This document shows positions 14,465-34,287 of a stretch of 64,000 nucleotides of DNA, one piece after another. The stretch is taken from assembly GCA_034439575.1 (NCBI GenBank), contig JAWXAQ010000008.1, forward strand, positions 271,359-335,358. Direction: 5' to 3'. The position numbers and the translations under genes were made by a program. The notes beneath the pieces were generated by a model. That model searched no databases and was not told the DNA's origin. It saw only the letters and a list, made by a program, of their open reading frames with translations. The DNA comes from Leptospira sp. Lineage in GTDB: Bacteria > Spirochaetota > Leptospiria > Leptospirales > Leptospiraceae. How positions within the stretch are numbered: the first letter of the stretch is position 1; every line of letters starts with the position of its first letter.

Positions 14465-15645
14465 TAGGTAAGGCCACGAACTTATATTCTTTAGATCCTT
14501 TATTTGAGTATAGGTTTGTAAATCCGCCATTAACCATTGACAAACAAACATTAAGAAGGCGCTTTTCATTAGAAAAGCTCTTCTTTTTTTTAACAAAGCC
14601 TGGTGATTTGGTTCATGTCACTGAATTTCCATCAGAAGACTTTTTATCTCAATTTGACAAACTTGGATTTGCAATAGGCACTCCCTGGATAGAAGGTGAG
14701 TTCATTACAAGTGAAATGAATCTTGTGGAATGGGGTCAGTATCATGATCTAAATTCGCCTTACCTTATTCCAAATGAAGGAAAAATTGAATATTCAAAAT
14801 ATCTAAACTCAAAACTTGTCCAAAGGCAATGGAAGGAAGACTTTTCCTTAAGTCCTCTAAAAAGTAAGTTAATTTCATCCGAAGATTTGTTAATTGATTA
14901 TTTGAATGAGTGCCAAAGGCCCATTGTATTAAAAGGCGCTTATGGTATCGCCGGTCGCAATCATATCATTATTGAATCTCCTTCGCAAGGATGGAAGTTA
15001 CAGCAGATTCCCAAAAAATTATATAACTATCCTGTATTTTGTGAAGAGTGGGTTGGCAAAGATCGAATTTTTGATTTTTCTACACTTTGGGATTTTACAG
15101 AATCAGGACCTTCATTTTTAGGCATTACGGAAATGTTAGTTGAAGCGGATGGAAGTTTTCGTGGCATTCGCATGAGTGCAAATATTGAACAAAGGTTAGT
15201 TCATATATTGCCTGATTGCCTTCAAATAATGAAATCCATTTTAGATGCTTCGGAATTTAAACCGATTGGACCTGCGGCAATGGATGGCTTTCTATATAAA
15301 GTGAATCATGAACTAAGAGTTCAGAACTTTTCTGAGATTAACTTTCGCTATTCGATTGGACGAATTTTGTTTGAAATTCGAAAATATAAAAATTTAAGAA
15401 TGTTAGAATCCGGCTTATTATTTTTGCCATTAAATCAAATTAAAAAATTCAATGAAAAAGAATGGTTAAGCGTTGTTAAAAAAGAAACTGGAGCAGAAGT
15501 TTTTTTTGTCACACCAACAAAAGATGCGAAGGGAAAATACTTTCAGAATGTAGGTCTTTATTATGAGGAGAAACAAAACTCCCAACAATCAAATGAACTT
15601 GTCACTTGGTTGGGAGAGGCGTGGAGAAATTTAATAATTAATTAA
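14464..15645 (+). CDS. ATP-grasp-fold protein of unknown function
   Basis: VLKGAYGIAGR, CEEWV, GPAAMDGF, SEINFR. The frame is open from 14452 but the first NTG start is TTG at 14608; an ATA at 14464 overlaps the upstream stop. Confidence 0.65.
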   Translation: MGKATNLYSLDPLFEYRFVNPPLTIDKQTLRRRFSLEKLFFFLTKPGDLVHVTEFPSEDFLSQFDKLGFAIGTPWIEGEFITSEMNLVEWGQYHDLNSPYLIPNEGKIEYSKYLNSKLVQRQWKEDFSLSPLKSKLISSEDLLIDYLNECQRPIVLKGAYGIAGRNHIIIESPSQGWKLQQIPKKLYNYPVFCEEWVGKDRIFDFSTLWDFTESGPSFLGITEMLVEADGSFRGIRMSANIEQRLVHILPDCLQIMKSILDASEFKPIGPAAMDGFLYKVNHELRVQNFSEINFRYSIGRILFEIRKYKNLRMLESGLLFLPLNQIKKFNEKEWLSVVKKETGAEVFFVTPTKDAKGKYFQNVGLYYEEKQNSQQSNELVTWLGEAWRNLIIN

Positions 15646-16424
15646 ACTTCTTCATTATTTCGAATGAATCTATGTTTACCGTTGATTTCGATGACTGGTT
15701 CACCTGATTTACGATCTAAACGTAACTCAAGTGTATCGGTATTTGTAAGAGGTAATGTGGCTTCTAAATTTACTAAAACCTTCTCCCCTTTTTCAGTCCA
15801 AGTACATAACATACGGGCTGTATCATATCCCATTTCACAAGTACCATCATTGTGTAAGCTGATTTTTGCTATGTTTGATTCTGTTTTCCATTTTCCTATG
15901 GCCCAGGTATTTTTCGGCGGAGTGAGTATGGAGCCTGCTTGGTCAGCAAGTAACTTAACTTCGGCGATGGATGTGTCTTTGGCTAATTTTCCTTTATAAA
16001 TATCTAAAATCGTCAAGGTGACTTTTTTTGCCTTAAATTCTTTTTTGAGGCTTAATTTTTGAGCAGATAAAGCATCCTTTAGGGTGAAAATTTCTTCTTG
16101 TCCATTATCTGTTGTTAGTTTGAGTTTTTTGATTCGGTTATGATTGCCCCATTCTTTGGGATCGCCAAATCCATTGTATATGGCAAGTGTTTGGAAACTA
16201 ATATCAGATTTATAACTGATAGAAATGGATTCTCCAATCCCGTCACCTTCAGTTCCTTCCACCCAACTAGAATCCAATCTTCCATCCAAGGCATAAGCCG
16301 GAGGAAATTTTTCTTTTGAATTGGAACGAAAACTACTCGATGTTATGGTAGGTAAGTTTACGGATTGAGCCGTGATTGCCAAAAAACTAATGGCCAGAAA
16401 AGTAAAATAAAAAGATCGATTCAT
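15642..16424 (-). CDS. Secreted protein with discoidin/NADase-type glycan-binding-like domain
   Basis: Signal peptide; ALDG...SSWVEG..GDGIGESI...IYNG...NRIKKL...I.DIYKG....DTSIAEV. Confidence 0.75.
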   Translation of the reverse strand: MNRSFYFTFLAISFLAITAQSVNLPTITSSSFRSNSKEKFPPAYALDGRLDSSWVEGTEGDGIGESISISYKSDISFQTLAIYNGFGDPKEWGNHNRIKKLKLTTDNGQEEIFTLKDALSAQKLSLKKEFKAKKVTLTILDIYKGKLAKDTSIAEVKLLADQAGSILTPPKNTWAIGKWKTESNIAKISLHNDGTCEMGYDTARMLCTWTEKGEKVLVNLEATLPLTNTDTLELRLDRKSGEPVIEINGKHRFIRNNEEV

Positions 16425-16479
16425 CTTGGTAAAATGATATTCTATACGTGGAAAGAGCAAGAAAGAAAATTAAACAATT

Positions 16480-16794
16480 ATGGAAGATATCCATTTAATC
16501 TATATTACGACTAAGAATGCCGAAGAAGCTGAAAAAATTGGAACGATTTTGGTGAAAGAAAAATTGGCTGCCTGTGCGAACATCCTTCCGCAAATGCTCA
16601 GTATTTATGAATGGGAAGGAAAATTGGAAAAAGAATCCGAGGCCCTCCTTTTGCTAAAGACTAAACAAAGTTTGGTGAAAGACCTAATCCAGAGAACAAA
16701 AGAATTACATTCGTATACTGTTCCCTGCATTGTGAGTTATAAAGCAGGGGAGTCAAATGAAGTTTATCTGGATTGGATTCGGAACTCTCTATAA
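16480..16794 (+). CDS. cutA: Divalent-cation tolerance protein CutA
   Basis: LAACANI, SIYEWEG, LKT, HSY.VPCI, YL.W. Confidence 0.93.
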   Translation: MEDIHLIYITTKNAEEAEKIGTILVKEKLAACANILPQMLSIYEWEGKLEKESEALLLLKTKQSLVKDLIQRTKELHSYTVPCIVSYKAGESNEVYLDWIRNSL

Positions 16795-17501
16795 AATTCT
16801 CGGATACGTTCAAATAGAATTTCAAAGCCAAGAGAATCTCTCCATTCATGAAAATCTTTTGGAAGTGTTACCGCCTCAAACCATGCAGTTCCTGGTGCTT
16901 CTTTTGGCATAGCCAAAGCAGAAAATAATGTAGCGACCGTTAGGTCTACTCTTCCGAAACTTTTACCATTAAAGAATTTTTTTGATTTATATATCTCTTG
17001 TATTTCCGAACCCAAAGTTTTCACATTGGTCATAACCAGCTCTACATTTTTGGGATTTATTTTATAACGTTTTCTGAGTACGAGGGAAATAAGATCAAAT
17101 CGTTCTGGAGGAGGGATGATTTCTTCTTTTGTCGGCTGTCTTGTTAAAAATAATTTTCCAATGATTTCAGGGTATGCTAAAATAAAATGATATAAAATAG
17201 TTTGTAGACCTTTACCTAATTGGTCATCGATTTTTTTTTCCATTTCTCTTTCTTCTTCACTAGATGCTGCTTGGAAAGAATCAGAATCAATGAGATCTAA
17301 TATTTTTGAAGATCCTTGTATGACTCCATCTTTCATTTGTAAGACGGGGACAAAAGATTCTGTAGTGATTTCTTTTAATATTTGGATGTGTTCCCCAGGA
17401 ACCAATGTTTTTAATTCATAGTCAAATTTCGCAAGATCCAAAGCAAACCTTGCTTTTTCTGAAAAATGGGAGATGGGGAAGATGTAAAGGAGAGGGGTCA
17501 T
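16764..17501 (-). CDS. Glutathione S-transferase family protein
   Basis: ISHFSEKAR.ALD, VPVL, GS..I, F.R.DLTVA. Confidence 0.85.
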   Translation of the reverse strand: MTPLLYIFPISHFSEKARFALDLAKFDYELKTLVPGEHIQILKEITTESFVPVLQMKDGVIQGSSKILDLIDSDSFQAASSEEEREMEKKIDDQLGKGLQTILYHFILAYPEIIGKLFLTRQPTKEEIIPPPERFDLISLVLRKRYKINPKNVELVMTNVKTLGSEIQEIYKSKKFFNGKSFGRVDLTVATLFSALAMPKEAPGTAWFEAVTLPKDFHEWRDSLGFEILFERIREFYREFRIQSR

Positions 17502-17656
17502 TGATATAATAAGTAATTATTAACGATCATTTTGTCTTTAAAATATTGCATATTTAAATGAGAATCTTCGTATAAATTTGGTAAATTTCGATTTCCTATC
17601 TTTAAAATAAAATATTGATTGATTCTGTATGAATTAGGCTAATTGGCATTGTCGCG

Positions 17657-18844
17657 ATGGAAAATATCAATCGAACTCGGATTTGTAGAGATTTGTTTTT
17701 GAAAATTTTGATACTTCTATTTTGTACATTTTTCTTTAACGCTTGTTTGTTAAATCCTATCATCCGCGCTTTGTTATTCTCTGAAAAAAATAATTCTAAT
17801 CTAAATTTTCTTTTCTTAGCTGGTATGACCAATCCTACATCAGCGACTGAACTTAATGAATCCACCATTTCGTCAAATAAAGATATTACATCTTATTCGA
17901 TTCCATCATTGAACTTAACTGGAAACATTTCTGGGGATAAAATTTCATTAGTATCAGATACTTTAACCAGTATTTCTTCCTATACTGCAAATTTTACAAC
18001 CACAGGCCAAAGAGTCACCATTTCTGGAGTGGAACAAATAAGCGGTGTTACCAGCAATTTCTATACATCAAATTTGACATATACTGTAACAGCTGCAGAC
18101 GGAAGTACAAAAAATTACTATGTTTCTCTAACAGCGCCACGATCGTATGGCGGATCTTCGTTGCGCATTTGGTTAAAAGCAGATTCAATTACAGCGGGCA
18201 ACGGTTCATCGGTGGCAAGTTGGACAGACGATAGTGGTTATGGAAACCATTTTACAAATGTTAATGTTCCCGCTCAGCCAATCTATCAAACATCAAGAAT
18301 CAATGGCTTACCTGCTCTCAATTTTACACAATCTGGTGTTAGCTCACTTGGAATTACGACAGCCACTGGTCTCTATATAGACAACAGTGCCTCTTATTTT
18401 ATCGTTATGAAATTTTATACAAATGCAGGCGGAGCTCAGACTATTTTTAATATCGGAGGAACAGACGGGCGGCAATTTGATATGACCTCTTCTCCAGCTA
18501 ATGTTTGGTTAGGTAGGAATAATTCTGGATGGGATTATTTTTCGTCGTTTGTTTTTCCAACTGAATTTGTGGCTTTTGGGACTGTTCAAAATCTCCAGGT
18601 AAGCAAAAATGAAATCTGGAACGGCGATTTGAAAGCGGAATTAAACCCTGCGAGTACAATCGATTCAATGTATGCTGGAAATCCAGTTAATGCGTTTCTA
18701 TCAAGTGGTAATAGCGATATGGAAGTGGCAGAATTTTTATATTTTAATACATTTTTGTCCCAGACGGAAGTGAACAAAGTATTTTGTTATTTAAATACAA
18801 AATATAATTTATCTTCAACAACTATCAATTGTAATAACATTTGA
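17657..18844 (+). CDS. Surface lipoprotein with Ig/cadherin-like domain plus LamG-like domain
   Basis: Lipobox-like FFNAC. KDITSY...QISGVT.N...TYTVTAADGST..Y module, then LRIWLKAD...W.D.SG.GNH...EFLYFN..LS..E...V..YL..KY. Start uncertain. Confidence 0.7.
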   Translation: MENINRTRICRDLFLKILILLFCTFFFNACLLNPIIRALLFSEKNNSNLNFLFLAGMTNPTSATELNESTISSNKDITSYSIPSLNLTGNISGDKISLVSDTLTSISSYTANFTTTGQRVTISGVEQISGVTSNFYTSNLTYTVTAADGSTKNYYVSLTAPRSYGGSSLRIWLKADSITAGNGSSVASWTDDSGYGNHFTNVNVPAQPIYQTSRINGLPALNFTQSGVSSLGITTATGLYIDNSASYFIVMKFYTNAGGAQTIFNIGGTDGRQFDMTSSPANVWLGRNNSGWDYFSSFVFPTEFVAFGTVQNLQVSKNEIWNGDLKAELNPASTIDSMYAGNPVNAFLSSGNSDMEVAEFLYFNTFLSQTEVNKVFCYLNTKYNLSSTTINCNNI

Positions 18845-19031
18845 TAGTTGTAAAAAAAATTCTTAAAAATTCTGGTCTATAAAAGTTTTTTATCCCAATG
18901 GGAATGAATATACGCCTTTTGTTAGCTTAAGTTTTTTATTTCCGAACATATTGAACTATAAATTGAAGTTTGTAACTAAATATTTGTTTTTGATTGACAA
19001 TATATTTTTAAATTTGATTTAACTACTGATT

Positions 19032-19907
19032 ATGAAGTCAATATTCAAATTTTTGGGAATCGGATTTGGAATCCTTTTTTCTATCATCTTACTCTTTGGT
19101 TTATTTGTTTATATAAACAGTTCTTCTCGAATGAATCAAACTTTTAAGTTAGTTGATCATGGTTTAACTTTACCATCAAATACGAATGATCTGAAGGAAG
19201 GGAAACGTTTATTTATTTCCCGAGGTTGTGTGGATTGTCATGGAGAAAATCTGTCTGGTGCGACTTTCATTGATGATCCTGCGATAGGAAAATATACCGG
19301 AAAAAACTTAACTAGTGGGAAGGGTGGATTTAGTAAAGATAGAGATTTTACATCTTTCTCGAACGCCGTAAGACACGGAGTTGGTGAAGATGGAAAACCA
19401 CTCTTGTTTATGCCTTCCTCAGATTTTCATGGGATGACCGATGTTGAATTAGGAACTATCTTTCAATATGTTCGTTCTGTTCCTCCAGTCGATAAACCGT
19501 ATGAACCTCAACAAGTAGGCCCGCTTGCTCGTGTTTTATTTGTATTGGGAAAGATGCCACTACTTGTAACCGCGGAAAAAATTGACCATGAAATGCAAAG
19601 TGAAAAACAACAAACTGTTGAAGTATCCGTTGCTTACGGAAAATACCTCGCAGCGGGTTGCACAGGATGTCATGGAGAAAAATTGACTGGTGGACCAATT
19701 GCCGGTGCTCCACCTGAATGGCCAGAGGCACAAAACATTACCAAGGTGGGGATCGAAAAGTATTCGGAGGCTCAATTTTTGAATGCGATCCGTACGGGTA
19801 AACGTCCTGATGGTTCTGTGATGAAGCCACCTATGCCTTGGCAAAATATGGCTCATATGACCGATACGGAATTAAAATCCATTCGTTTGTATCTATTAAC
19901 TTTATAG
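19032..19907 (+). CDS. Membrane-anchored dihaem cytochrome c
   Basis: N-terminal TM; CVDCH and CTGCH, each followed by an MP axial-ligand motif. Confidence 0.9.
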   Translation: MKSIFKFLGIGFGILFSIILLFGLFVYINSSSRMNQTFKLVDHGLTLPSNTNDLKEGKRLFISRGCVDCHGENLSGATFIDDPAIGKYTGKNLTSGKGGFSKDRDFTSFSNAVRHGVGEDGKPLLFMPSSDFHGMTDVELGTIFQYVRSVPPVDKPYEPQQVGPLARVLFVLGKMPLLVTAEKIDHEMQSEKQQTVEVSVAYGKYLAAGCTGCHGEKLTGGPIAGAPPEWPEAQNITKVGIEKYSEAQFLNAIRTGKRPDGSVMKPPMPWQNMAHMTDTELKSIRLYLLTL

Positions 19908-19926
19908 ATTATTAAATTCAAAAATT

Positions 19927-19986
19927 AAATCACATAATTCATGTTATTTGTTAACAGACAAATTACAAATGGATTATGTGATTTTT
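19927..19986. terminator. Long AT-rich hairpin between convergent genes (probable terminator)
   Basis: aaatcacataattcat...atggattatgtgattt with inner arms atttgt/acaaat. Confidence 0.55.
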
Positions 19987-20023
19987 TCGAATCGAATATC
20001 GGATAAAATTTTTCTTCTTAAAT

Positions 20024-21148
20024 CTAAGCTTTGATCGCTTCTTTGATGGGAAATTCTACATAAATTGACCACGCGTTTGTACTGTTTCCGATTTTTACTG
20101 GTACAAAAATATGTGCTGTGTTTTCTTTATCAATATATTGAAAATTTCTACCTTCCATAATGGCAATGGTTGCTTCATTGGAAATCTCTTCTGCTTTTTT
20201 GCCGAGTTGATTTGTATCAGGACTTGCAGCATACACTGATTCATTTGAAAGAAGACAAGTTTTTCCCAATCCAAAAACTTTTTTAATCGAAATATTTGAT
20301 TGTAGTTGCTCTAAAGAAAAATCAGCACCCATGATCCCTGAAAATTTTCCATGGATAAAAAGATTTGTCATAAGACTCGTCATACGCACCTGTTTGCCGT
20401 TAATCGGATATATATAAGGTTCCATCATGACATCTTTACCAAGAGCTCTGGGTAATTCATACCAATCGTTTTCGCCTTCAACATCATAACCTTGTAAAGG
20501 TTCTATGGCGATTTGACCAGTATGACGATTGCAGTAGGGAACAAATCGACCATTTTTGTCGTGACCCATTTCGCCCATATAATCCTTGTCATTTGGATCA
20601 ACTACATTTGATTCAAAACAACAGGCATAAGCGAGTTGTTGAGGATTTTGATCTAGATACTCTTTGAGTAAAATTAATATTTGAGAACGAGTGAGCCCAC
20701 TTTCAGATTGGATCATACTTTGGATAAGAAATTTTAATCCGTAAAGTGATGTTGCCATAATATAGAACTTTGCTTCTAATTCGGAAGCGACTTGCGATGC
20801 CCAAAGTTTGGCAAATTCTATGACTGCTTCCATTTCAAAATGTTCAACTTCAGAGGAAGCTGACATCGTTTCATGATTGATACGTTGTAAAATATCAGAG
20901 ATTTTTTTTGTGGCTTCGGAGGTGCGATACGAAAGTTTTGAGACTTCATTGGCGACAACCTCAAAACCTTTTCCATATTCACCAGCACGAGCAGCCTCTA
21001 TCGCGGCGTTAAGTGCCAAGAGATTTGTTTGTTTGGCTACTTGTTGAATGGCTGAGGCGACGGTCCCGATTTCTTTGGACCTTTCACCAAAGGCATTGAT
21101 CATATGCCTCAGACGTTTCATACTATTATTGGAATAATTTTCTTCCAT
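20024..21148 (-). CDS. Soluble chemoreceptor with N-terminal MCP signalling hairpin and C-terminal dCache-like sensor
   Basis: [32 protein letters not shown] at aa 40-73. GRFVPY...WY..P...EPY.Y.I.G..V.MTS...G.F.GI.G.D in the C-terminal half. No TM helix evident. Confidence 0.85.
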
Positions 21149-21240
21149 AGTTATATTATCGAAACATACTAAAGCACATTTTAATAAAGATTCAAGCTAA
21201 TAAATGAATCCTTAATTTCTTTTATCAATAGGTATTTATA

Positions 21241-22686
21241 TTAAACACCCCCGATCATAATATGTTTTGTGATCAAATAGTCTCCGACTGATTCTTGGGA
21301 AAGATCTTTCCCAAATCCTGATTGTTTAAAACCACCGTGTGGTGCCTCTGATGCTAAAGGCAAATGATCATTGACCCAAACGGTTCCAAATTCCAGTTTC
21401 TTTGCTACTCGCATAGCACGTGCTATGTCGTTTGTCCAAATAGATGATGCTAATCCGTAATTGACATCATTGGCTAATTGTATCGCTTCTTCTTCAGTAG
21501 AAAAAGGTAAAATAGTTAGAACAGGTCCAAAGATTTCATTTTGAACAACTTCTGACTTCTGATTGATCTCACTGATAACAGTAGGTTCAATAAAATATCC
21601 TTTTTCTAAACCTTTGGGAATGCTACCGCCAGTTAATATTTTGCCGCCTTCATTTTTGGCCCTTTGGATAAATCCGAGGATATTATCTCTCTGTTTTCCC
21701 GAAACGATAGAACCCATTTCAGTGAGATCGTCAAATGGCATCCCCACTTTAACATTTTTCATCGCTTCTACAAGTTGATCTGTTGCTTTTTTCAATAGAT
21801 CTTTGTGAACATAGACGCGTGTGGCGGCGGTACAATCTTGACCAGAATTGCAAGTCGCACCAAACATGGCTTTTGCGGCAAATAAGTCTAAGTCTGCATC
21901 ATCGAATACAAGTAAAGGAGCCTTTCCACCTAACTCTAAATGCACGCGTTTGAGTGAATCAGCGGCACTCTTCATAATTTTTTTGCCTGTACCTGTGGAT
22001 CCTGTTAGTGAAACCATGCGAATCTTTGTATGATCTACGAGAGCCTGGCCTGCATCGTTGCCACCGGCCACAACATTGAACACGCCGTCAGGAATACCAG
22101 CTTCTTTACTCAATTCAGCTAACATGAGAGTGGTGAGAGGAGTATTGGGAGCAGGTTTTAAAACGACTGTGCATCCTGCCGCTAGTGCAGGTGCAAATTT
22201 CCAAACAGCCATAAGAATGGGATAATTCCAAGGAGTGATTTGACCGACGACTCCCACAGGTTCTCGTCTAAATAGGGAAGTGTATCCGGGGGCAAATTCC
22301 CCAGACTTAGATCCATGAATATCTCTTGCGGCACTCGCAAAAAATCTTAAATTATCAACTGCAAATGGGATATCTCCCGCCAAACTTAAGTTTTTGTAAG
22401 GTTTTCCCACATTCTCAGACTCGACTTTTGCAAATTCTTCTGTTTTGGATGCCAATAAATCTGCCAATCGAAATAAAGCTATAGAACGCTCGCTAGGTGT
22501 TAATTGGGACCAGCGCCCATCAGACCATGCATTATCCGCTACCGTCACCGCATAATCTATATCGCTCGCATCTCCTAAACTAACTTCGGCAAAGTATTCA
22601 CCATTAGCCGGATTTTCTATTTTTGAATATAACTTTGATTTTGATTCTACCCACTTTCCGTCTATCCAATGATTGTATTTTTTCAT
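21241..22686 (-). CDS. patD: Gamma-aminobutyraldehyde dehydrogenase (PatD/YdcW-like)
   Basis: ALDH motifs PWNYP, LELGGKAP, GQDCTAATR, EIFGPV, EAPHGGFKQSG.GKDLS; adjacent to gabT/gabD and polyamine ABC genes. Confidence 0.85.
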   Translation of the reverse strand: MKKYNHWIDGKWVESKSKLYSKIENPANGEYFAEVSLGDASDIDYAVTVADNAWSDGRWSQLTPSERSIALFRLADLLASKTEEFAKVESENVGKPYKNLSLAGDIPFAVDNLRFFASAARDIHGSKSGEFAPGYTSLFRREPVGVVGQITPWNYPILMAVWKFAPALAAGCTVVLKPAPNTPLTTLMLAELSKEAGIPDGVFNVVAGGNDAGQALVDHTKIRMVSLTGSTGTGKKIMKSAADSLKRVHLELGGKAPLLVFDDADLDLFAAKAMFGATCNSGQDCTAATRVYVHKDLLKKATDQLVEAMKNVKVGMPFDDLTEMGSIVSGKQRDNILGFIQRAKNEGGKILTGGSIPKGLEKGYFIEPTVISEINQKSEVVQNEIFGPVLTILPFSTEEEAIQLANDVNYGLASSIWTNDIARAMRVAKKLEFGTVWVNDHLPLASEAPHGGFKQSGFGKDLSQESVGDYLITKHIMIGGV

Positions 22687-22688
22687 AA

Positions 22689-23984
22689 TTAGCCTTTAAT
22701 TTCCTTGAGCGATTTTTCTATTATTAGCAAACCTTCGTTTAATATATGTTCTTCTGCAGTGATAGGAACTAGAATCCGGATAACGTTTCCATAAACTCCG
22801 CAAGATAATAAAACCAATCCATTTTCAAGAGCTTTAGAAGTTAATTTTTTTGCCAAATCTGCGGAAGGTTTTTCTGCATTTCCATTCTCAACTAATTCAA
22901 ATGCCACCATTCCACCAAGCCCTCTAATCTCACCGATGGAATTAAATTGTTTTTTCATCTCATATAATTTAGAAACTAAATGTGCACCGAGATTCTTTGA
23001 TTTATCTAAAATATTTTCTTCTTCAATTAAATCCATTATGGCAATTGCCGCCGTGCATGCCACTGGATTCCCAGCATAGGTTCCACCAAGTCCACCAGGT
23101 TCTACAGAGTCCATTATGGATGCTTTTCCTATCACGGCTGATAGGGGCATGCCACCTGCCAGAGATTTGGCGGTTGTGATCAGATCAGGGTGAATACCGC
23201 TATGTTCAATCGCAAAGAGTTTTCCTGTCCTTGCAAATCCAGACTGTACTTCATCGGCGATAAGTAAAATACCGTGTTCATCACAAATAGCTCTAAGTCT
23301 TGTTAAAAAAGAAGCTGAGGCAATATAAAAACCTCCTTCACCTTGTACAGGTTCAATGGCGATCGCGGCAATTTTTGAAGGATCAATATCTGCTTTAAAA
23401 AGATTTAACAATGCTTTGATGGAATCATCTTCTGTGACACCATGGTAATCCATTGGAAAAGGTATGTGATAAACATCCCCTGGGAAGGGACCAAATCCTT
23501 TTTTGTATGGTACAACTTTTCCAGTCAGTGCTAAAGCCATCATGGTTCGACCATGGAAACCACCAATAAATGAAATGAAACCGCTACGTCCCGTGGCGAC
23601 CCGAGCAATTTTTACCGCATTTTCGAGTGCCTCGGCGCCGGAAGAAAAGAGGATCGTTTTTTTGGGACCAGCGATAGGTGCTTTTTGATTTAATTTCTCA
23701 CATAACTTTACATAAGGTTCATATGGCATGATTTGGAAAGCTGTATGTAAATACACATCGACTTGTTTATGTATGGCGGCAATGACTTTGGGATGGCAAT
23801 GTCCTGTGTTCATCACACCGATCCCACCACCGAAATCAATAAACCGATTTCCTTCCACATCCCAAATTTCTGCATTTTTTGCTCTTTCGGCAAAGATTGG
23901 ATAGGCGGTGGTCACGCCTCTTGGAACATTTGCCACTCTTCTTTCCCAAAGAGATTTATTTGTTAACGTTTCACCTATTGTCAT
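22689..23984 (-). CDS. gabT: 4-aminobutyrate:2-oxoglutarate aminotransferase
   Basis: DF.GGIGV.N.GH, SGAEA.ENAVK, FHGRT, EPVQGEGG, DEVQSG, AKSLAGG, GGTY.GNP. GGAGG RBS and ATGA overlap with the gabD stop. Confidence 0.92.
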   Translation of the reverse strand: MTIGETLTNKSLWERRVANVPRGVTTAYPIFAERAKNAEIWDVEGNRFIDFGGGIGVMNTGHCHPKVIAAIHKQVDVYLHTAFQIMPYEPYVKLCEKLNQKAPIAGPKKTILFSSGAEALENAVKIARVATGRSGFISFIGGFHGRTMMALALTGKVVPYKKGFGPFPGDVYHIPFPMDYHGVTEDDSIKALLNLFKADIDPSKIAAIAIEPVQGEGGFYIASASFLTRLRAICDEHGILLIADEVQSGFARTGKLFAIEHSGIHPDLITTAKSLAGGMPLSAVIGKASIMDSVEPGGLGGTYAGNPVACTAAIAIMDLIEEENILDKSKNLGAHLVSKLYEMKKQFNSIGEIRGLGGMVAFELVENGNAEKPSADLAKKLTSKALENGLVLLSCGVYGNVIRILVPITAEEHILNEGLLIIEKSLKEIKG

Positions 23985-25438
23985 GTGATTCCTCCAAGAC
24001 ATAAATACTTGGTAACTATATAATCATCGATACCATACTTAGAGCCCTCACGGCCCATTCCAGAGAATTTAACTCCACCAAACGGTACTTGTTCGGAGGA
24101 AATTAGACCTTCATTGATTCCCACCATTCCGTATTCTAAACTCTCTGCAACTCGGAAAAGTTTGGCGATATCTTTGGTATAAAGATAGGATGCCAAACCA
24201 AAATCTGTATCGTTTGCCAGATGTATTGCTTCTTCCTCGGTTCTAAAGGTTTGTATAGAGGATACTGGACCGAAAGTCTCTTCTTGACAGACTAACATTT
24301 GATTGTTGACGGGGAATAATACAGTCGGCTCAAAAAATGTACCACCAAGGCTGTGTTTCTTTCCACCTGTCAATACTTTGGCACCTTTGTCTTTCGCATC
24401 CTTTATATGGAGTTCTACTTTTTCCAAAGCCGCTTCGTTTATCAAAGGCCCTTGTTGGACTTCCGTATTTAGTCCATCACCTACCTTTAGTTTGGAGGCA
24501 AGGTCTGACAATCTGTTTGCAAATTCCGAGGCAATGGATTCTTCAACTATAAAACGATTTACGCAAACACAAGTTTGACCTGTGTTGCGATATTTCGAAA
24601 GCATGGCACCTTTCAGAGCTTCATCCAAATCAGCATCTTTAAAAACGATAAAGGGAGCATTGCCACCTAACTCTAGTGAAAGTTTTTTTAAAGTTTTGGC
24701 CGATCTTTCCATTAAATACATTCCTGTGCGAGTGGACCCAGTAAAACTTAATTTCCGTACATCTTTTGCATTTAAAATTTCTTCACCAATTGCGATATGA
24801 TCTCCTGTGACAAGATTCCACACACCCTTTGGTAATCCGGCTCGTTCAGCAAGCACTGCGAGCGCAAAAGCAGAGTAAGGTGTCAATTCACTGGGTTTGG
24901 AAACAACAGTACAACCAGCGGCAAGAGCTGGCGCAACTTTTCTTGCAAGCATGGCCGATGGAAAATTCCAAGGGGTGATGGTTGCGACGACTCCAATTGG
25001 CTCTTTTAAAACAAAAATCCGTGTGTCTTTTCTATGAGAAGGAATAATGTCACCATACACACGTTTGGCTTCTTCTGAAAACCATTCAATATATGATGCA
25101 GCATAGGTTATTTCCCCTTTGGCCTCGGCTAAAGGTTTGCCTTGTTCCATCGTTAATATTTTTGCTAGCTCATCTGCATTTTCCAGGATGAGATGGAACC
25201 ATTTCCGTAAAATAATTGCACGTTCTTTGGCAGGAGTTTTTTTCCATTCTGGAAAGGCTAATTTTGCTGCTTGGATGGCTTTTTCTGTTTCCGCTTTGCC
25301 AGAATTCGGAATTGTACCGATCTTTTTATTTGTCGCGGGATTGGTGACATCCAAGGTTTGGCCAGAACTTGCACCGATCCAAGTTCCAGAGATATAGTTT
25401 AAGTCCCGAAAGAGGGACAGTTCTTTCATCTCGTTCAT
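23981..25438 (-). CDS. gabD: NAD(P)-dependent succinate-semialdehyde dehydrogenase
   Basis: EQGKPLAEAKGE, TPWNFP, LELGGNAP, RNTGQTCVC, EETFGP, PFGGVK.SG.GREGSKYG. Confidence 0.93.
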   Translation of the reverse strand: MNEMKELSLFRDLNYISGTWIGASSGQTLDVTNPATNKKIGTIPNSGKAETEKAIQAAKLAFPEWKKTPAKERAIILRKWFHLILENADELAKILTMEQGKPLAEAKGEITYAASYIEWFSEEAKRVYGDIIPSHRKDTRIFVLKEPIGVVATITPWNFPSAMLARKVAPALAAGCTVVSKPSELTPYSAFALAVLAERAGLPKGVWNLVTGDHIAIGEEILNAKDVRKLSFTGSTRTGMYLMERSAKTLKKLSLELGGNAPFIVFKDADLDEALKGAMLSKYRNTGQTCVCVNRFIVEESIASEFANRLSDLASKLKVGDGLNTEVQQGPLINEAALEKVELHIKDAKDKGAKVLTGGKKHSLGGTFFEPTVLFPVNNQMLVCQEETFGPVSSIQTFRTEEEAIHLANDTDFGLASYLYTKDIAKLFRVAESLEYGMVGINEGLISSEQVPFGGVKFSGMGREGSKYGIDDYIVTKYLCLGGIT

Positions 25439-25574
25439 TTCTAATGCTTGTATAAATTCTTGAAATAAAAATCCCACCATTTTTTAAAATTCTGTGTAAA
25501 TGCTTGCCATGAGTTTTCTATTTATTATGTTTTTGCATTGAAACGGATCAATTCCGAGAGGAGTACACAATCAA

Positions 25575-26744
25575 ATGACAAAATCGTTTTTGAAAAAGCT
25601 CATGGCGATAGCGATTATCATTGCCATCGCACTTGTAACTGCATGCGGTAAGAAAGAACAAAAACTAACAACAATTGGGCAAACAGAAGGCGAAGTTTCT
25701 ATCGTCGCTTGGCCTGGTTATATCGAAAGAGGTGAAACAGATAAGGCTTACGATTGGGTAAGCGAATTTGAAAAATCTAGCGGTTGTAAAGTGAACATTA
25801 AAACTGCAGCGACTTCGGATGAAATGGTTGCATTAATGAACGAGGGAGGCTTTGATCTTGTCACGGCTTCTGGTGATGCTTCCTTACGTTTGATTGCCGG
25901 TGGAAAAGTCCAAGAAGTTAACATTGATTTAGTCCCAAGCTGGAAAAATGTAGATTCAAGACTTCAAAATGCCGCATGGCACACAGTAGACGGAAAACAT
26001 TATGGTGTTCCTTACCAGTGGGGTCCAAATGTTCTTATGTACAATACAAAAGTATTTAAGTCTGCACCTACATCCTGGAGTGTCGTTTTTGAAGAACAAA
26101 ACCTTCCGGATGGAAAATCCAACAAAGGTCGTGTGCAAGCGTTTGATGGTCCAATTTATATTGCAGATGCGGCACTTTACTTAAAATCCGCAAAACCAGA
26201 GTTAGGCATCAATGATCCTTACGAATTGGATGAAAAACAATACGCTGCGGCTATTGAGATTTTAAAAAAACAAAGACAATTAGTTCCAAAGTATTGGCAT
26301 GATGCAATGGTACAAGTGGATGACTTTAAAAAAGAAGGTTTAGTCGCATCCTCTACATGGCCGTTTCAAGTAAACTTGTTACTTAGCGAAAAACAAGCAG
26401 TAGGTTCTGTGGTTCCAAAAGAAGGAGCTACGGGTTGGGCAGATACGACTATGCTTCACAAAGATTCAAAACATGTAAATTGCGCCTACAAATGGTTAGA
26501 GCATTCTATCCAACCAAAAGTACAAGGTGATCTCGCTTCTTGGTTTGGTTCTGTTCCATCAGTACCTGCGGCATGTAAAGGCAATGCATTACTTACTGAT
26601 TCAGGTTGTGCTACGAATGGTTTTAACAATTTCGAAAAAATATCTTTTTGGAGAACACCAGTTGAAAATTGTTCTGGTGGAAGAAAATGTGTTCCTTACA
26701 AAAAGTGGGCTGAAGATTACATAGCTATCATTGGTAGCAAATAA
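25575..26744 (+). CDS. Polyamine-type ABC transporter substrate-binding lipoprotein (YdcS-like)
   Basis: Lipobox LVTAC. IVAWPGYIERG.TDK.YDWV..FEK..GC.V, SGDASLRLI, PYQWGPN, PKEG.TGWADTTM. Confidence 0.9.
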   Translation: MTKSFLKKLMAIAIIIAIALVTACGKKEQKLTTIGQTEGEVSIVAWPGYIERGETDKAYDWVSEFEKSSGCKVNIKTAATSDEMVALMNEGGFDLVTASGDASLRLIAGGKVQEVNIDLVPSWKNVDSRLQNAAWHTVDGKHYGVPYQWGPNVLMYNTKVFKSAPTSWSVVFEEQNLPDGKSNKGRVQAFDGPIYIADAALYLKSAKPELGINDPYELDEKQYAAAIEILKKQRQLVPKYWHDAMVQVDDFKKEGLVASSTWPFQVNLLLSEKQAVGSVVPKEGATGWADTTMLHKDSKHVNCAYKWLEHSIQPKVQGDLASWFGSVPSVPAACKGNALLTDSGCATNGFNNFEKISFWRTPVENCSGGRKCVPYKKWAEDYIAIIGSK

Positions 26745-26766
26745 GTTTTAAATTCGGAGGGATTCA

Positions 26767-27783
26767 TTGGGCGAATTATACGACGTAGAATTAAAAAATG
26801 TTACAAAAAGATTTGGTGATTTTATCGCCGTCGACAATGTTTCCTTTGGAATTTTAAAAGGTGAGTTTTTTTCTATGCTTGGACCTTCGGGTTCAGGCAA
26901 AACTACCTGCCTCCGTATGGTGGCAGGTTTTTACGATCCAAGTTCGGGCTCAGTATTGTTAGGTGGCTCTGATGTCTCGGGAGTCCCACCTTACAAAAGA
27001 AATGTGAATACGGTGTTTCAGGATTATGCCTTATTTCCACATATGACCATTGCTGAAAATATTGGTTACGGCCTGATGGTGAAAAACGTTCCGAAAAAAG
27101 AGATATTAGCGCGCGTTTCCTCTATGTTGGAACTCGTTCGATTGCCAAATGTAGGTCATAGAAAACCATCTGAACTTTCTGGTGGACAAAGACAAAGAAT
27201 CGCTCTTGCACGAGCGCTCATTAACCAACCACAAATTTTATTGTTAGATGAACCTCTAGGTGCACTGGATCTCAAACTTAGAGAAGAGATGCAAATTGAA
27301 CTGAAAAGCATTCAGAAAAAAATCGGCATCACATTTATATTTGTCACTCATGACCAAGAAGAAGCCTTGTCTATGTCAGATCGTATAGCTGTTTTTAACA
27401 AAGGTAAGGTGGAACAAATTGGCACTCCCAATGAGATTTATGAGCACCCAAATACTGAATTCGTTGCCAATTTCGTCGGCAATTCAAATATCTTTGAAGC
27501 AGATATAGCAAGTAAATTGACTGGTAAATCGCAAAAAATAATGGTACGACCAGAAAAAATGAAAATCCTCTCAAAAGGAGAATCAACGGAAGGTTATCTA
27601 AGTTTAGAAGCAAATTTACAAAATTTTGTTTATTCAGGAGCCACTTCAAAAATTTTACTCCAATCAAAAACGGGACAACGAATCATCGTCGCCAAACAAA
27701 ATCAAAATGAGAGTCTGCTAACTCCTTCACAAGATGTGGTGGTCGTTTGGAAAGAGTCAGATATGCACGTTATCTCAAAATAA
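26767..27783 (+). CDS. Polyamine ABC transporter ATP-binding protein (PotA/YdcT-like)
   Basis: GPSGSGKTT, LSGGQRQR, LLLDEPLGALD; TTG start after GGAGG. Confidence 0.93.
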   Translation: MGELYDVELKNVTKRFGDFIAVDNVSFGILKGEFFSMLGPSGSGKTTCLRMVAGFYDPSSGSVLLGGSDVSGVPPYKRNVNTVFQDYALFPHMTIAENIGYGLMVKNVPKKEILARVSSMLELVRLPNVGHRKPSELSGGQRQRIALARALINQPQILLLDEPLGALDLKLREEMQIELKSIQKKIGITFIFVTHDQEEALSMSDRIAVFNKGKVEQIGTPNEIYEHPNTEFVANFVGNSNIFEADIASKLTGKSQKIMVRPEKMKILSKGESTEGYLSLEANLQNFVYSGATSKILLQSKTGQRIIVAKQNQNESLLTPSQDVVVVWKESDMHVISK

Positions 27784-27787
27784 ATTT

Positions 27788-28705
27788 ATGACTACTACCT
27801 TTGACAAACTGATTACATTTTTATTTTATAGAAAAAGTTTAGCAATTTTTCTATTACTCACACCCCTGATCATTTGGTTAGGTGTCATATATATTGGTTC
27901 TTTATTCACTCTATTGATTCAGAGTTTTTTTTCTATCGATTCTTTTTCTGGGGTGATCAAACACGAGTTTACATTCGATACATATATTGATCTATTTCGC
28001 CAACCTACAAATTGGGATATCTTTTTAAGAACTTCGGGTATGGCGGGAACTGTAACTTTTGTTAGTGCTATTTTGGCATTTCCCGTTGCTTATTATATGG
28101 CAATGTATGCTGGACCTAAGTTAAAGCCTGTATTGTATTTAGGGATCATGTTACCACTTTGGTCTAGTTATCTTGTAAAAGTATATGCATGGAAATTGTT
28201 AATGGCCAAAGAAGGAATCATTACTTGGTCTTTGGATCAAATCGGGCTTACTCATTTACTCGATGTTATATTGTCCATTCCTGTGATAGGTGGAACCTCT
28301 CTGTCTTTTTCTTATATTGGGATGTTTCTTGTTTTCCTCTACCTTTGGTTGCCATTTATGATCCTACCTATCCAGGCATCCTTGGAAAGAATCCCTAAGT
28401 CACTTTTAGAAGCATCATCCGATTTAGGAGCTGGGCCATCCGTCACATTTCGCAAAGTGATTTTACCTTTAGCGTTTCCAGGTGTTGTCGCAGGTTCCAT
28501 TTTTACATTTTCATTGACACTTGGTGATTATATCATTCCCACCATCATTGGAAATTCTAGTTATTTTATCGGTATGGCAGTTTATACTCACCAAGGAACA
28601 GCGGGTAACATCCCTTTGGCGGCAGCCTTTTCTGTGATCCCTATCATTATTATGATGGTCTATCTTATGATCGCCAAACGATTAGGAGCTTTCGATGCTC
28701 TCTAA
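27788..28705 (+). CDS. Polyamine ABC transporter permease (PotB/YdcU-like)
   Basis: EAA loop [18 protein letters not shown]; multiple TMs. Confidence 0.9.
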
Positions 28706-29498
28706 ATTCCTACCAAAAAACATAGGTCTTAAATTCGCCACACTCTTGGTATTTTTATTCATTCATATACCTATTGTTTTTATCATCCTATATGCGTTTT
28801 CCACGGATGAAAAAACATTCCAGTTCCCGATTCCTGGCTTCACCTTGAAATGGTTTGGTGTGGCTTGGGAGAGAAAGGATATATGGGATGCGATATGGTT
28901 ATCAGTCCAAGTTGCAAGTATCTCTACTTTGCTCGCACTTATCCTTGGAACACTTGCCACACTCGGTGTTTATCGAAGCCAATTTTTTGGCAAAGAAGTG
29001 ATTTCATTTTTGGTGATACTACCCATTGCACTTCCAGGTATTGTCACTGGAATTTCTCTACGTTCGGCGATGAATTTATTTGGCATTCCATTTAGTACAT
29101 GGACAATTGTTATCGCACATGCGACCTTTTGTATAGTAACAGTTTACAACAATGTATTAGCAAGGCTTCGGCGGAGTTCGCATTCACTTGTCGAAGCATC
29201 TATGGATTTAGGAGCCACACCTTTCCAAACCTTTAGGTATGTGATTTTACCAAATATCGCCACGGCTTTGTTAGCTGGAGGGATGTTATCTTTTGCCTTG
29301 TCCTTTGATGAAGTCATAGTCACAACATTTACAGCAGGTCAACAATCCACAGTGCCTATTTGGATGTTAACAGAATTTATACGACCAAGGCAGAGGCCTG
29401 TCACAAATGTTGTGGCTGTTTTTGTGATCCTTGTGACGACATTACCGATTTTGGCCGCATACTTTTTAACTAAAGAATCAGAGACAGAGAAAAAATAA
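28695..29498 (+). CDS. Polyamine ABC transporter permease (PotC/YdcV-like)
   Basis: [24 protein letters not shown]. Confidence 0.9.
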
Positions 29499-29548
29499 AA
29501 ATCACATAGATTTTCAGAAAAAAGGTATATGTTTACAATTTGCCTTTT

Positions 29549-30487
29549 TTATTTTTGAATTTTGATCATCGTTTCTGGTGCAATGCGGTCGATGTCACAT
29601 GTGAAGGCTAATGGCAAAGATTCATTGCCAGAAAAATCTTTCGCTTTAAACTCAATACGAATCGTTTTTTCATAAGGAAAAAGTTTTTCGATTTCAAATA
29701 TTCTTTCCGTTAGGTTCCAATTATCCATTCCAGACTTTCTCCAATATAAATCCTTTGCTTCAGAAAAATTATCTTTTGCTGTGATTTCCAATTTGGTGTT
29801 ACGAGCACAAATGGATTTGTCATTGGAAGTCATCAGTTTTGGTAAACTATTGATACTGAGGGAAGGGGGTGTGGAATCTACAACCCAAGACAATTCGATT
29901 CGTTTAGAAATGTTTTTTACATTGTCATAGGCAAATGCACTGATATAATGTTTGCCTTCTTCTTTGGTAGTCATTGTCCAATCTTTGCCTGTTTCGATCG
30001 AATTTTCAATTCCTCCATCAAGGGAAACATACAAATTGCGCACTCCACTTTCATCATCTAATGCGCGTAATGTTAATTCATTATTTGCCTGAACCATAAA
30101 TTGGTCATTCCATGTTTTTGGTAAATTGCGCCAAATAATATTGATTTTTGGAGATGTGCGGTCAACGTATAGATTTAACTTTTGTTCGGATTCGCGATTT
30201 TCTAGAACATCTTCAGCATAGTAGTGCAATTCATTCCAGCCTGCATTGGGCGGATAAACTGGTTCAGAAAATTTTGACCAAGTTTCGTCATTCCACCTGA
30301 AAAAATAAGAAGCGTTCGCTTCGCCCTTTTCCCAATTCAGTTTATAATATTCATTTACGAATAGTGTGGCATCTGCAGAGAGATAAGTTTCTGGCGTGGT
30401 AATTTTTTGATAAAGGCTTGTTACTTGTTCAGCAGAGAAAATCGCAAAAGAGATGAGGGCAGTGACGACATAGAAAAATAGTTTCAT
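29549..30487 (-). CDS. Secreted protein with tandem Ig-like (OmpL47-type) repeats
   Basis: Signal peptide; three repeats ending Y.A.D...N...VD.T.P. Confidence 0.65.
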   Translation of the reverse strand: MKLFFYVVTALISFAIFSAEQVTSLYQKITTPETYLSADATLFVNEYYKLNWEKGEANASYFFRWNDETWSKFSEPVYPPNAGWNELHYYAEDVLENRESEQKLNLYVDRTSPKINIIWRNLPKTWNDQFMVQANNELTLRALDDESGVRNLYVSLDGGIENSIETGKDWTMTTKEEGKHYISAFAYDNVKNISKRIELSWVVDSTPPSLSINSLPKLMTSNDKSICARNTKLEITAKDNFSEAKDLYWRKSGMDNWNLTERIFEIEKLFPYEKTIRIEFKAKDFSGNESLPLAFTCDIDRIAPETMIKIQK

Positions 30488-31269: not shown

Positions 31270-31638
31270 ATGACAAAAAAAAATAACCAACCTATCGTAA
31301 CAGAACACGGTGTAATTGCCACTATTTTTGGAAAAGAAACTGCATTTAACGGAACTTTGGTGTTCAAAAAGCCATTACAGATATCGGGAGATTTCGTAGG
31401 CGAAATTATTTCTGACGGTTATTTGGTTGTGAGCGAAGGCGCGCGCGTCAAAGCAAATATTAAAGCAGGAACTGTTGTAGTTGGCGGAACCATCATCGGA
31501 AATGTGACAGCTACGCAAAGATTGGAAATGCTTGCCTCTGGTAAAGTACAAGGAAATATTCGCACAGCCAAATTACAAATTGCTGATGGAGTTGTATTTG
31601 ATGGCAATTGCGAAATGATTCAAAGCGAAGAAACTTAG
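31270..31638 (+). CDS. Bactofilin (polymer-forming cytoskeletal protein)
   Basis: Beta-helical repeats F.G.L...L.I.G.F.GEI...V.A.I.A..VVVGG...GNV.A...GKV.GNI....L.I..G..F.G.C.M. Confidence 0.92.
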   Translation: MTKKNNQPIVTEHGVIATIFGKETAFNGTLVFKKPLQISGDFVGEIISDGYLVVSEGARVKANIKAGTVVVGGTIIGNVTATQRLEMLASGKVQGNIRTAKLQIADGVVFDGNCEMIQSEET

Positions 31639-31640
31639 TT

Positions 31641-33419: not shown

Positions 33420-33434
33420 TAGTCTGAGGGAAAT

Positions 33435-34286
33435 ATGAAAGATCAAGTCATTGTCATTACTGGTGCGACGGATGGAATTGGAAAAGTTGCCGCAAGAGAA
33501 TTGTCCAAAAAAGGGTATGCAACAGTACTTGTCGGAAGAAATATTCGTAAATTAGAAAGTACGAAAGAAGAATTTTTAAAACTAAATCCACAAGCCTTGA
33601 TCACAATATTTCAAGCTGACCTTTCTTTGTTGAAAGAAACAAAAAGGGTAGGCAAAGAAATTTTAAATAAATTCCCGAAAATTTATTGTTTATTAAATAA
33701 TGCGGGAGCCTTTTTTGCTGATCGTACATTGACTACTGAAGGATTAGAATCCACATTTGCACTGAACCATATGAATTATTTTATTTTGAGTCATGAGTTA
33801 CTTCCCGCCTTACAGAATCATGGTAAAGCTAGGATTGTGAATGTTGCTTCGGGAGCACACGTTGGAGTAACATTGGATAAAGAAGATTTGTTAGCTGAGA
33901 AAAATTATTCTGGCTGGAAACAATACCAAAGATCCAAACTGATGAATATTTATTTCACACAAAGTTTGAGTGAAAAAGTAAAAACAAAAGGTATCACAGT
34001 AAATTGTTTGCATCCTGGTTTTGTAAAAACAAAATTTGGGCACAATAACGAAGGTTTAGCGAAAACTCTAGTCGCCATTGGGCAAAATCTATTTGCCATC
34101 AATGAGGACAAAGGGGCTGCGACATCAATTTATTTGGCTGATTCGAAAGATATTGAAGCTGTGACTGGAAAATACTTTGTTAAATCAAAAGAATCCAAAA
34201 GCTCCAAACAATCCCACATTGCAGCAGATCGCGAATATTTGTGGGATTATTCTGAAAAAATTGCAAAATCTATATTAGGCAATTAG
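33435..34286 (+). CDS. Short-chain dehydrogenase/reductase (retinol dehydrogenase-like)
   Basis: TGATDGIG, NNAG, YQRSK, HPG.V.T. Confidence 0.92.
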   Translation: MKDQVIVITGATDGIGKVAARELSKKGYATVLVGRNIRKLESTKEEFLKLNPQALITIFQADLSLLKETKRVGKEILNKFPKIYCLLNNAGAFFADRTLTTEGLESTFALNHMNYFILSHELLPALQNHGKARIVNVASGAHVGVTLDKEDLLAEKNYSGWKQYQRSKLMNIYFTQSLSEKVKTKGITVNCLHPGFVKTKFGHNNEGLAKTLVAIGQNLFAINEDKGAATSIYLADSKDIEAVTGKYFVKSKESKSSKQSHIAADREYLWDYSEKIAKSILGN

Positions 34287-34287
34287 A

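Follow-up and report, generated by a model that had tools for sequence, protein, structure and literature searches.

The 64,000-nucleotide stretch analysed here (the window; Leptospira sp., GenBank assembly GCA_034439575.1, contig JAWXAQ010000008.1, positions 271,359 to 335,358 of the forward strand) carries on its minus strand a gene (20024..21148, ATG start) for a 374-residue protein that resembles a soluble, inverted methyl-accepting chemotaxis protein (MCP). The gene was recognised from the list of open reading frames (ORFs), Pfam matches, full-length orthologues and the ratio of nonsynonymous to synonymous substitutions (dN/dS, omega). As the original prediction had proposed, an MCP tip of about 95 residues stands at the N-terminus, with neither a transmembrane (TM) segment nor a HAMP domain, and is followed by a dCache sensor. 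The MCPsignal domain (PF00015) covers residues 7-105 with 100.2 bits (cut-off 34.6), MCP-like_PDC_1 (PF22673) covers residues 160-283 with 40.2 bits (cut-off 27), and dCache_1 (PF02743) matches residues 220-364, corresponding to profile positions 91-239 of 240, with 28 bits, under its cut-off of 45. On the minus strand, the protein is built from the signalling hairpin (residues 7-105, 20834..21130), a helix that continues the C-terminal arm of the hairpin (residues 106-147, 20708..20833), a first, distal PDC module with the predicted ligand pocket (residues ~160-285, 20294..20671) and a second, proximal PDC module (residues ~286-367, 20048..20293), the last delimited by the dCache_1 match and by secondary structure. 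The protein ends 7 residues past the proximal module, where canonical receptors run on into TM2. The reversed connectivity, with a bare MCP tip at the N-terminus, a full dCache at the C-terminus and no membrane segment, is confirmed.

Hydropathy agrees with a soluble protein throughout the family. No HAMP domain was matched by Pfam and no TM segment was predicted in the 374 residues, whose highest 19-residue Kyte-Doolittle mean is 1.23. Of the 44 other family rows, 43 have a maximum of 0.94-1.53 and one reaches 1.98, within a conserved beta-strand, compared with 2.13-2.96 in seven canonical relatives. The hydropathy scan also found no hydrophobic, signal-like N-terminus in any of the 45 family rows, the window protein included.

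Signalling hairpin and sensor domain

The hairpin comprises an N-terminal arm (residues ~7-55), a U-turn near G56-E57-Y58-G59 and a C-terminal arm (~61-105), with roughly 7 heptads per arm. The tip residues N47, E51, G56, G59, G61, F62 and E68 are invariant in all 42 family members compared, and R54 and V69 are kept in 41 of the 42. An AlphaFold2 (AF2) model of residues 1-150 (predicted local distance difference test, pLDDT, 90.2) superposes on the solved MCP tips 6s1k_E, 3g67, 1qu7 and 2ch7 with a root-mean-square deviation (rmsd) of 0.6-1.7 A over 97-106 columns; for chain E of 6S1K, the rmsd is 1.1 A over 98 columns, with a TMt of 0.91 and 37% identity. Identity of the hairpin to the Tsr and T. 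maritima tips is 37-40%. The DSSP strings of the full-length and the 1-150 models describe one unbroken helix (residues 3-147 and 8-149, respectively), and a straight single helix was therefore considered as a candidate. It was rejected, since a straight helix could not yield a superposition of about 1 A on solved hairpins, and the model is taken as a hairpin.

Little of a canonical signalling domain surrounds this tip. Only profile positions 15-113 of the 172 in MCPsignal are present, and the methylation (adaptation) helices that flank the tip are missing, which agrees with the earlier expectation of reversed connectivity with little room for methylation helices. Residues 21-89 align to Tsr 355-423, and the whole hairpin thus corresponds to about Tsr 335-441. 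The methylation sites of Tsr fall outside this range, so that the methylation region is not included in the hairpin. A search with a methylation-site consensus pattern found no match in five family members, but this search is insensitive and also missed the sites of the canonical receptor P0125. Beyond the hairpin, HMMER alignments to 3LI8 and 3LIB begin at residues 97-104. By these alignments, DSSP and the dimer contacts described below, residues 106-147 are the counterpart of the long stalk helix at the N-terminus of dCache domains, a helix that emerges from TM1 in canonical receptors.

When two copies were predicted together, an ipSAE of 0.57 was obtained (best control 0.00), at least 89% of contacts were common to the runs, and the partner pLDDT was at least 85. 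In a benchmark, this mark of 0.57 was reached by 20 of 30 solved homomers and by 1 of 23 solved monomers. The predicted contacts are spaced by 3-4 residues in an a/d-type heptad pattern over residues 9-104 (pairs 27-86', 34-76' and 41-69'), and they resume over residues 122-168 (stalk 122-148), with no confident contact at 105-121. In the model, this pattern would be that of a four-helix bundle turning near residue 56, and the antiparallel pairing of hairpins into a four-helix-bundle dimer, which is expected of an MCP domain, is found at model level only. The result of the dimer prediction may reflect likeness to solved MCP dimers, and it is a measure of likeness and not of binding.

The sensor was compared with solved structures by sequence and by fold. 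The sequence comparison puts 9HEH (MkcA of Dickeya solani, E 8.2e-38) and 6PZJ (an MCP domain of Leptospira interrogans, 8.1e-35) first, and the M. mazei kinase-domain entries 3LI8 (1.3e-31) and 3LIB (8.6e-27) and PacA (7PSG, 1.5e-27) are also close; the five best entries of dCache_1AM type thus span E 8.2e-38 to 8.6e-27. PctD (7PRQ, 3.2e-13) and McpX (6D8V, 5e-13) are weaker matches. McpU (6F9G, 4.4e-16) and TlpQ (6FU4, 5.5e-13), whose motifs the original prediction had likened to those of the window protein, are more distant than MkcA, and the dCache_1AM group has to take their place. Foldseek, when run with the full-length AF2 model (pLDDT 87.8), gave the same order as the sequence comparison. 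TMt values were 0.80-0.85 for the top entries (9heh, 6pzj, 7psg and 3lib), being 0.85 for 9heh and 6pzj and 0.84 for 7psg, and the dCache_1AM sensors overall ranged from E 3e-23 to 2.5e-16 with TMt 0.74-0.85. TlpQ was found at rank 14 (E 5.5e-18) and McpU, solved with putrescine, at rank 20 (E 1.5e-16).

Cerna-Vargas et al. (2023, PMC10589655) describe dCache_1AM as the amine-recognising dCache, with the key PctD residues R103, D133, W155, F188, M215, S217 and D235, and the paper treats McpU and TlpQ as a separate polyamine class that is yet to be characterised. Dataset S1 of that paper expresses the motif as a string of residues, and the window protein, with Y205, W229, M256, S258 and D276, has the string Y..W..M..S..D, the same as is listed for its Pseudomonas kuykendallii homologue. 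The first aromatic residue was placed at Y205 by its spacing to W229 and by the PacA alignment. The motif span (20321..20536) also includes Y230 and Y245, and all the motifs that had been quoted from the translation are there (GRFVPY at 200-205, WYELP at 229-233, EPYIY at 243-247, MTS at 256-258 and GAD at 274-276). In the 42 full-length family members, Y205, S258 and D276 are kept in 42 and M256 in 40, while position 229 is W in 39, Y in two and F in one. R154 and D184 are likewise invariant (42/42) and stand at the spacing expected for R103 and D133 of PctD, a likely equivalence reached by indirect mapping. Compared with the description of dCache_1AM, the fold with a long N-terminal helix and the amine motif are both found in the window protein, whereas the extracytoplasmic location between two TM helices is not. 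On these sequence and model comparisons, the sensor is best classed as a predicted amine-type dCache of the dCache_1AM (PacA/PctD) kind and not of the McpU/TlpQ kind.

Distribution, selection and origin of the layout

The inverted layout is not confined to the window. A word-indexed search found 37 full-length rows of the same layout with lengths of 365-408 residues, and the sources named are many Leptospira species, Pseudomonas kuykendallii, Acidocella aromatica and Leeia. Over the whole length, the members from Proteobacteria share 42-45% identity with the window protein, with 42% for the P. kuykendallii homologue. Within the genus, an orthologue was found in 29 of 32 other genomes, namely in all 27 of the first sample, with one copy each, and in two of five further genomes. 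No orthologue was found in any of 73 genomes sampled across 13 other genera of the same family, and G104, G107 and G113, each 99% complete, gave no match either. One orthologue (G075:C6:26861-27979) contains a single in-frame TAG and may be a pseudogene or the result of a sequencing error.

Selection has acted on the whole protein. From pairwise Nei-Gojobori estimates for 36 pairs, omega was 0.021-0.057. For the seven pairs with dS<1, it was 0.026-0.053 overall, 0.008-0.060 in the hairpin (codons 1-110) and 0.026-0.066 in the sensor, which therefore indicates strong purifying selection on both halves. Length and start are conserved across 13 Leptospira loci and in Proteobacteria, although one database entry (P0026, 271 residues) lacks the hairpin. 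On the conserved layout and the purifying selection, a pseudogene or fragment was rejected as the source of the window protein, and the suggestion that all homologues might be longer canonical MCPs, with this gene as a rearranged fragment, fails on the same grounds.

The layout is rare among MCPs. An HMMER search against 1.84 billion cluster representatives returned 223,107 matches, as expected for MCPs, and the best 150 of these contain six inverted clusters (374-403 residues) that match end to end; the other 144 are 540-1445 residues long, with the sensor match near the N-terminus and the tip as a separate stretch. On a quick, midpoint-rooted maximum-likelihood tree built from 97 rows of the sensor region, the 21 inverted rows lie on one side of a branch with an SH-aLRT support of 100 and are surrounded by canonical MCPs. 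Within the inverted group, the Leptospira rows make up a clade on a long branch that is nested in the remaining sequences (supports of 84-85). For the Pseudomonas member, the same canonical protein, P0125, comes first both by the sensor (46.5% identity) and by the tip (rank 1 of 224). Because the inverted clusters form one clade nested among canonical dCache MCPs, we infer, as a proposal short of proof, that one canonical dCache MCP lineage was circularly permuted once, for example via a tandem duplicate. On the same comparisons, the layout has probably spread later between phyla, from Proteobacteria to the saprophytic, Leptospira-type genus of the window.

In the limited library that was searched, no paper described a soluble receptor with MCPsignal followed by dCache, or an experiment on such a protein. 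Public annotation nevertheless already includes the layout, and so does one published dataset. Looked through by organism name, Dataset S1 of PMC10589655 lists the inverted homologues of P. kuykendallii and A. aromatica with the composition 'MCPsignal,dCache_1' and gives their layout without discussion; the motif of the latter is Y..Y..M..S..D. The five L. biflexa rows of that dataset are all canonical receptors, and the inverted L. biflexa protein is not among them. In the main text of the paper, the intracellular case that is named is the stand-alone actinobacterial dCache_1AM only.

Genomic neighbourhood

In the window, the receptor gene follows three genes of amine catabolism on the same strand, as had been noted before. 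Those are gabD (23981-25480; NCBIfam succinate-semialdehyde dehydrogenase TIGR01780, 688.8 bits against a cut-off of 646.35), gabT (22689-24002; 4-aminobutyrate (GABA) transaminase TIGR00700, 581.1 bits against 506.65) and a patD-like aminobutyraldehyde dehydrogenase gene (21241-22686; NF010000, 662.7 bits against 615), the cluster being matched by Pfam as well. In the ORF list, gabD and gabT have 22 bp in common (23981-24002). The listed gabD start may be upstream of the true start, because its N-terminal 15-30 residues lie outside the family profiles. On the plus strand, a divergent cluster recognised by Pfam and NCBIfam (25575..29498) encodes a ydcSTUV-like ABC importer with a binding protein, an ATPase and two permeases; the YdcS-like binding protein scores 645.8 bits, under the NCBIfam cut-off of 725.

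Between the patD stop (21241) and the receptor start (21148), there is a spacer of 92 bp on the minus strand (21149..21240), the distance given in the original prediction. It contains a 10-bp stem-loop at about 21185-21214 (fold z-score -2.42) and a weak promoter-like match (21184..21155), but the scan for promoters and terminators did not rise above shuffled sequences (for promoters, 18 found versus 15.8 expected). Just past the receptor stop, a long hairpin followed by a T-run (19927..19984, minus strand; fold -20.6 kcal/mol, z-score -2.77) resembles a terminator that would also serve a convergent cytochrome c gene (19032-19907, plus strand). The product of that gene has 291 residues, a hydrophobic segment at the N-terminus and two cytochrome domains of the c type. 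Rfam gave no family at threshold over 15000-30000. No RNA data set was listed for 19950-22700. In four wastewater 'RNA-Seq' metagenome runs of one study, contigs of 92-266 nt were 97-99% identical to parts of the receptor gene and patD (20001-22407); they are flagged as probably DNA, no contig bridges the spacer, so that they give no evidence on expression or co-transcription, and a close relative of the source organism was probably present in that wastewater.

Elsewhere in the window, the minus strand encodes at 15642-16460 a protein of 272 residues that matches the NAD glycohydrolase translocation F5/8 type C domain (PF25302, E 9e-26). A four-gene run on the plus strand (31270-36078) consists of a bactofilin gene (31270-31638), a 7TM-PAS histidine kinase gene (31608-33419), a short-chain dehydrogenase gene and an MCP gene (34288-36078), the last encoding 596 residues without a recognised sensor domain.

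In other genomes of the genus, the arrangement of the window is found only in part. The receptor gene stands directly after patD only in G000, G095 (protein 74% identical) and G111 (79% identical), with a gap of 92 bp, or 78 bp in G111, while G104, G081 and G047 have the ydcS/gabD-gabT-patD cluster without a receptor gene. In G107 (locus L095, G107:C5, 9517-11480), a homologue of the cytochrome c gene adjoins ydcS, and the gabD-gabT-patD-receptor block is missing from that site. A YdcS-like protein is present in all 41 genomes of the genus examined, and in six genomes with both genes on one contig, the receptor gene and ydcS are 390-460 kb apart. The adjacency of the receptor to patD thus holds in three genomes and does not extend to the genus, and the link to amine catabolism is lineage-specific.

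Neighbours of another kind are found elsewhere. In the larger Leptospira clade, a gene for an MsbA-like ABC exporter ends 31-60 bp upstream of the receptor gene on the same strand in all ten genomes (loci L003-L013, of which L013 duplicates L007). The exporter has 600 residues in L013 and matches TIGR02203 with E 1.1e-77, under the cut-off; it has no close homologue in the window, where it matches nothing but the importer ATPase (29% identity). In one species of this clade, the next gene downstream of the receptor (L013, 9390-9818, plus strand, and identical in L007) is an ORF of 142 residues that resembles photoactive yellow protein (TIGR02373, E 2.3e-32, 111.7 bits against a cut-off of 143). 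The other nine loci, which span only 1.5 kb downstream of the receptor, gave no match to this ORF. In Acidocella, the neighbours are a major facilitator superfamily efflux gene and an MBL-fold hydrolase gene, or thiamine pyrophosphate-dependent and patatin enzymes. In Rhodocyclaceae, they are lipase and GNAT genes, with CheW and MCP genes 2.4 kb away, and this is the only locus with che genes nearby. No amine genes were found near the receptor in the three proteobacterial loci. Because neighbours differ between lineages, the context gives no family-wide clue to the ligand, and the adjacency to patD is a derived arrangement.

Proposed function and significance

We propose that the window protein acts as a cytoplasmic, dimeric, amine-sensing mini-chemoreceptor that feeds CheW/CheA without methylation-based adaptation, a reading to which we lean with modest confidence. 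In such a receptor, a small cytoplasmic amine would lodge in the distal module, flanked by Y205 and W229 and placed against D276, and would shift the paired stalk helices (122-148). The shift would pass through a two-helix linker of about 17 residues (105-121) into the four-helix tip, where the change would alter the control of CheW/CheA and may in turn affect swimming. Because the protein stops after the proximal module, the N-terminal stalk helix would be the sole covalent route to the output. Because the methylation helices are absent, the response would proceed without adaptation by CheR/CheB, although both enzymes are encoded in the genome together with three CheA-size and four CheW-size proteins with CheW domains. 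The ligand could be a polyamine, a possibility unsupported beyond local adjacency. In a more specific form of this proposal, a permuted minimal receptor has its dCache moved into the cytoplasm and wired through the N-terminal helix to a 7-heptad tip, so as to report the intracellular amine pool to CheA with no HAMP, membrane or adaptation; this form is plausible but tentative, and we would put it at less than an even chance.

Several points weigh against the mini-chemoreceptor proposal. No che gene lies near the receptor gene in this genome, and a bulky dCache dimer placed about 7 heptads above the tip may not fit a packed receptor array. The gene is dispensable, because it was not found in G104, G107 and G113 and carries the in-frame TAG in G075. 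The Pfam dCache_1 score (28) is under the gathering threshold of 45, though the PDC_1 match, the Protein Data Bank alignments and the fold match are strong, and the positions of R103, D133 and W155 of PctD could be mapped only indirectly. The tree is a quick, midpoint-rooted one, in which the nesting of Leptospira in the proteobacterial members rests on supports of 84-85.

The original prediction had placed the receptor in polyamine metabolism, where it would sense imported putrescine, another polyamine or an intermediate (4-aminobutanal or GABA), would be expressed with gabD-gabT-patD and would give transport- or metabolism-dependent taxis. This is consistent with the co-oriented position after patD in G000, G095 and G111, opposite the ydcSTUV-like importer, and with the joint absence of the whole gabD-gabT-patD-receptor block from the site beside ydcS in G107. 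In structure, the putrescine-bound McpU also remains a clear match (E 1.5e-16). S159 and Q165 of PacA, which hold the carboxylate end of betaine (PMC10589655), align by HMMER with G220 and E226 of the window protein, and E226, being acidic, would be a better partner for a second amino group than for a carboxylate. On the other hand, the adjacency to patD is limited to three genomes, G104, G081 and G047 keep the cluster without the receptor, the receptor and ydcS are far apart (390-460 kb) in six genomes, the MsbA-like exporter stands upstream in 10/10 genomes of the larger clade, and the three proteobacterial loci have no amine genes nearby. C206, G220 and E226 in the pocket are the same in both Leptospira clades, so that specificity probably does not track adjacency, and McpU and TlpQ are more distant than the dCache_1AM members. 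Polyamines are abundant constituents of the cytoplasm, which makes a high-affinity cytoplasmic sensor for them awkward. We therefore regard a role in this pathway as unlikely, though it is the first of the alternatives to be considered, and the apparent operon link of the window should not be used for naming the ligand.

A protein reduced to its interaction tip could also work as a ligand-controlled decoy or assembly factor, in which the bare tip competes for CheW/CheA or caps the edges of arrays and so titrates kinase activity or array size. The absence of HAMP and adaptation helices, the hairpin, about as large as the receptor portion seen in the core signalling unit, and the lack of che genes beside the receptor gene would all suit such a factor. 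However, selection on the sensor, stalk helix and junction equals in strength that on the tip, the helix is unbroken from the tip into the sensor, which suggests coupling over mere tethering, and an intact amine pocket, which a decoy does not need, is conserved in 42 members; a decoy thus appears somewhat less probable even than a place in polyamine metabolism. Least of all do we expect a rearranged remnant of a canonical chemoreceptor, or a dCache part that is exported and works outside the cytoplasm, which we consider very improbable. Its nearest sensor relatives are indeed periplasmic domains of canonical MCPs of 600-700 residues, and P0026 shows that an entry without the hairpin exists, but the conserved length and start, the omega of 0.02-0.06 and the lack of a hydrophobic segment or signal-like N-terminus in the 45 family rows argue for an intact soluble protein, and an MCP tip can act only in the cytoplasm.

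Among known systems, the window protein shares the fold and the Y..W..M..S..D motif with the dCache_1AM sensors (PacA 7PSG, PctD 7PRQ, McpX 6D8V, the M. mazei histidine kinase 3LIB/3LI8 and MkcA 9HEH). Those sensors are extracytoplasmic, lie between two TM helices and signal via the C-terminal helix, whereas the window protein is cytoplasmic, has no TM helix, ends after the proximal module and is joined to its output via the N-terminal helix only. The polyamine and histamine receptors McpU (P. putida) and TlpQ (P. aeruginosa) have the dCache fold and several of the same pocket positions, but they are canonical transmembrane receptors and more distant in sequence. TlpD of Helicobacter pylori and related soluble receptors are soluble and dimeric, with the sensor C-terminal to the MCP signalling domain. 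In TlpD, however, the coiled-coil bundle is long, the binding site lies more than 140 A away from the kinase interface (PMC12871147) and the zinc-binding domain CZB is present, whereas the window protein has arms of about 7 heptads and a dCache. No CZB domain was matched by Pfam in the window protein, and its hairpin of only about 100 residues falls short of a full-length bundle. In extent, the hairpin is essentially equal to the 102-residue receptor fragment in the core signalling unit of E. coli (chain E of 6S1K), but in Tsr that fragment is the end of a much longer bundle with HAMP and methylation sites, while here only the sensor stands above it.

Cache domains are regarded as extracellular sensors, and the paper defining the superfamily gives the C-terminal transmembrane helix as the sole signal route (PMC4822843). 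The inverted family departs from this view in both location and signal route, while its pocket and docking tip are kept under strong selection. If our reading is true, a dCache can signal via either terminal helix, and about 100 residues of an MCP suffice for regulated kinase control, over what would be the shortest natural sensor-to-kinase path known among chemoreceptors. If the protein signals, it would offer a 374-residue, soluble and membrane-free system for studies of dCache-to-CheA transmission, and a case in which an internal metabolite drives taxis, or sets a bias, with no adaptation. For the evolution of receptor layouts, the family also matters as a case in which one permutation event appears to have spread between phyla.

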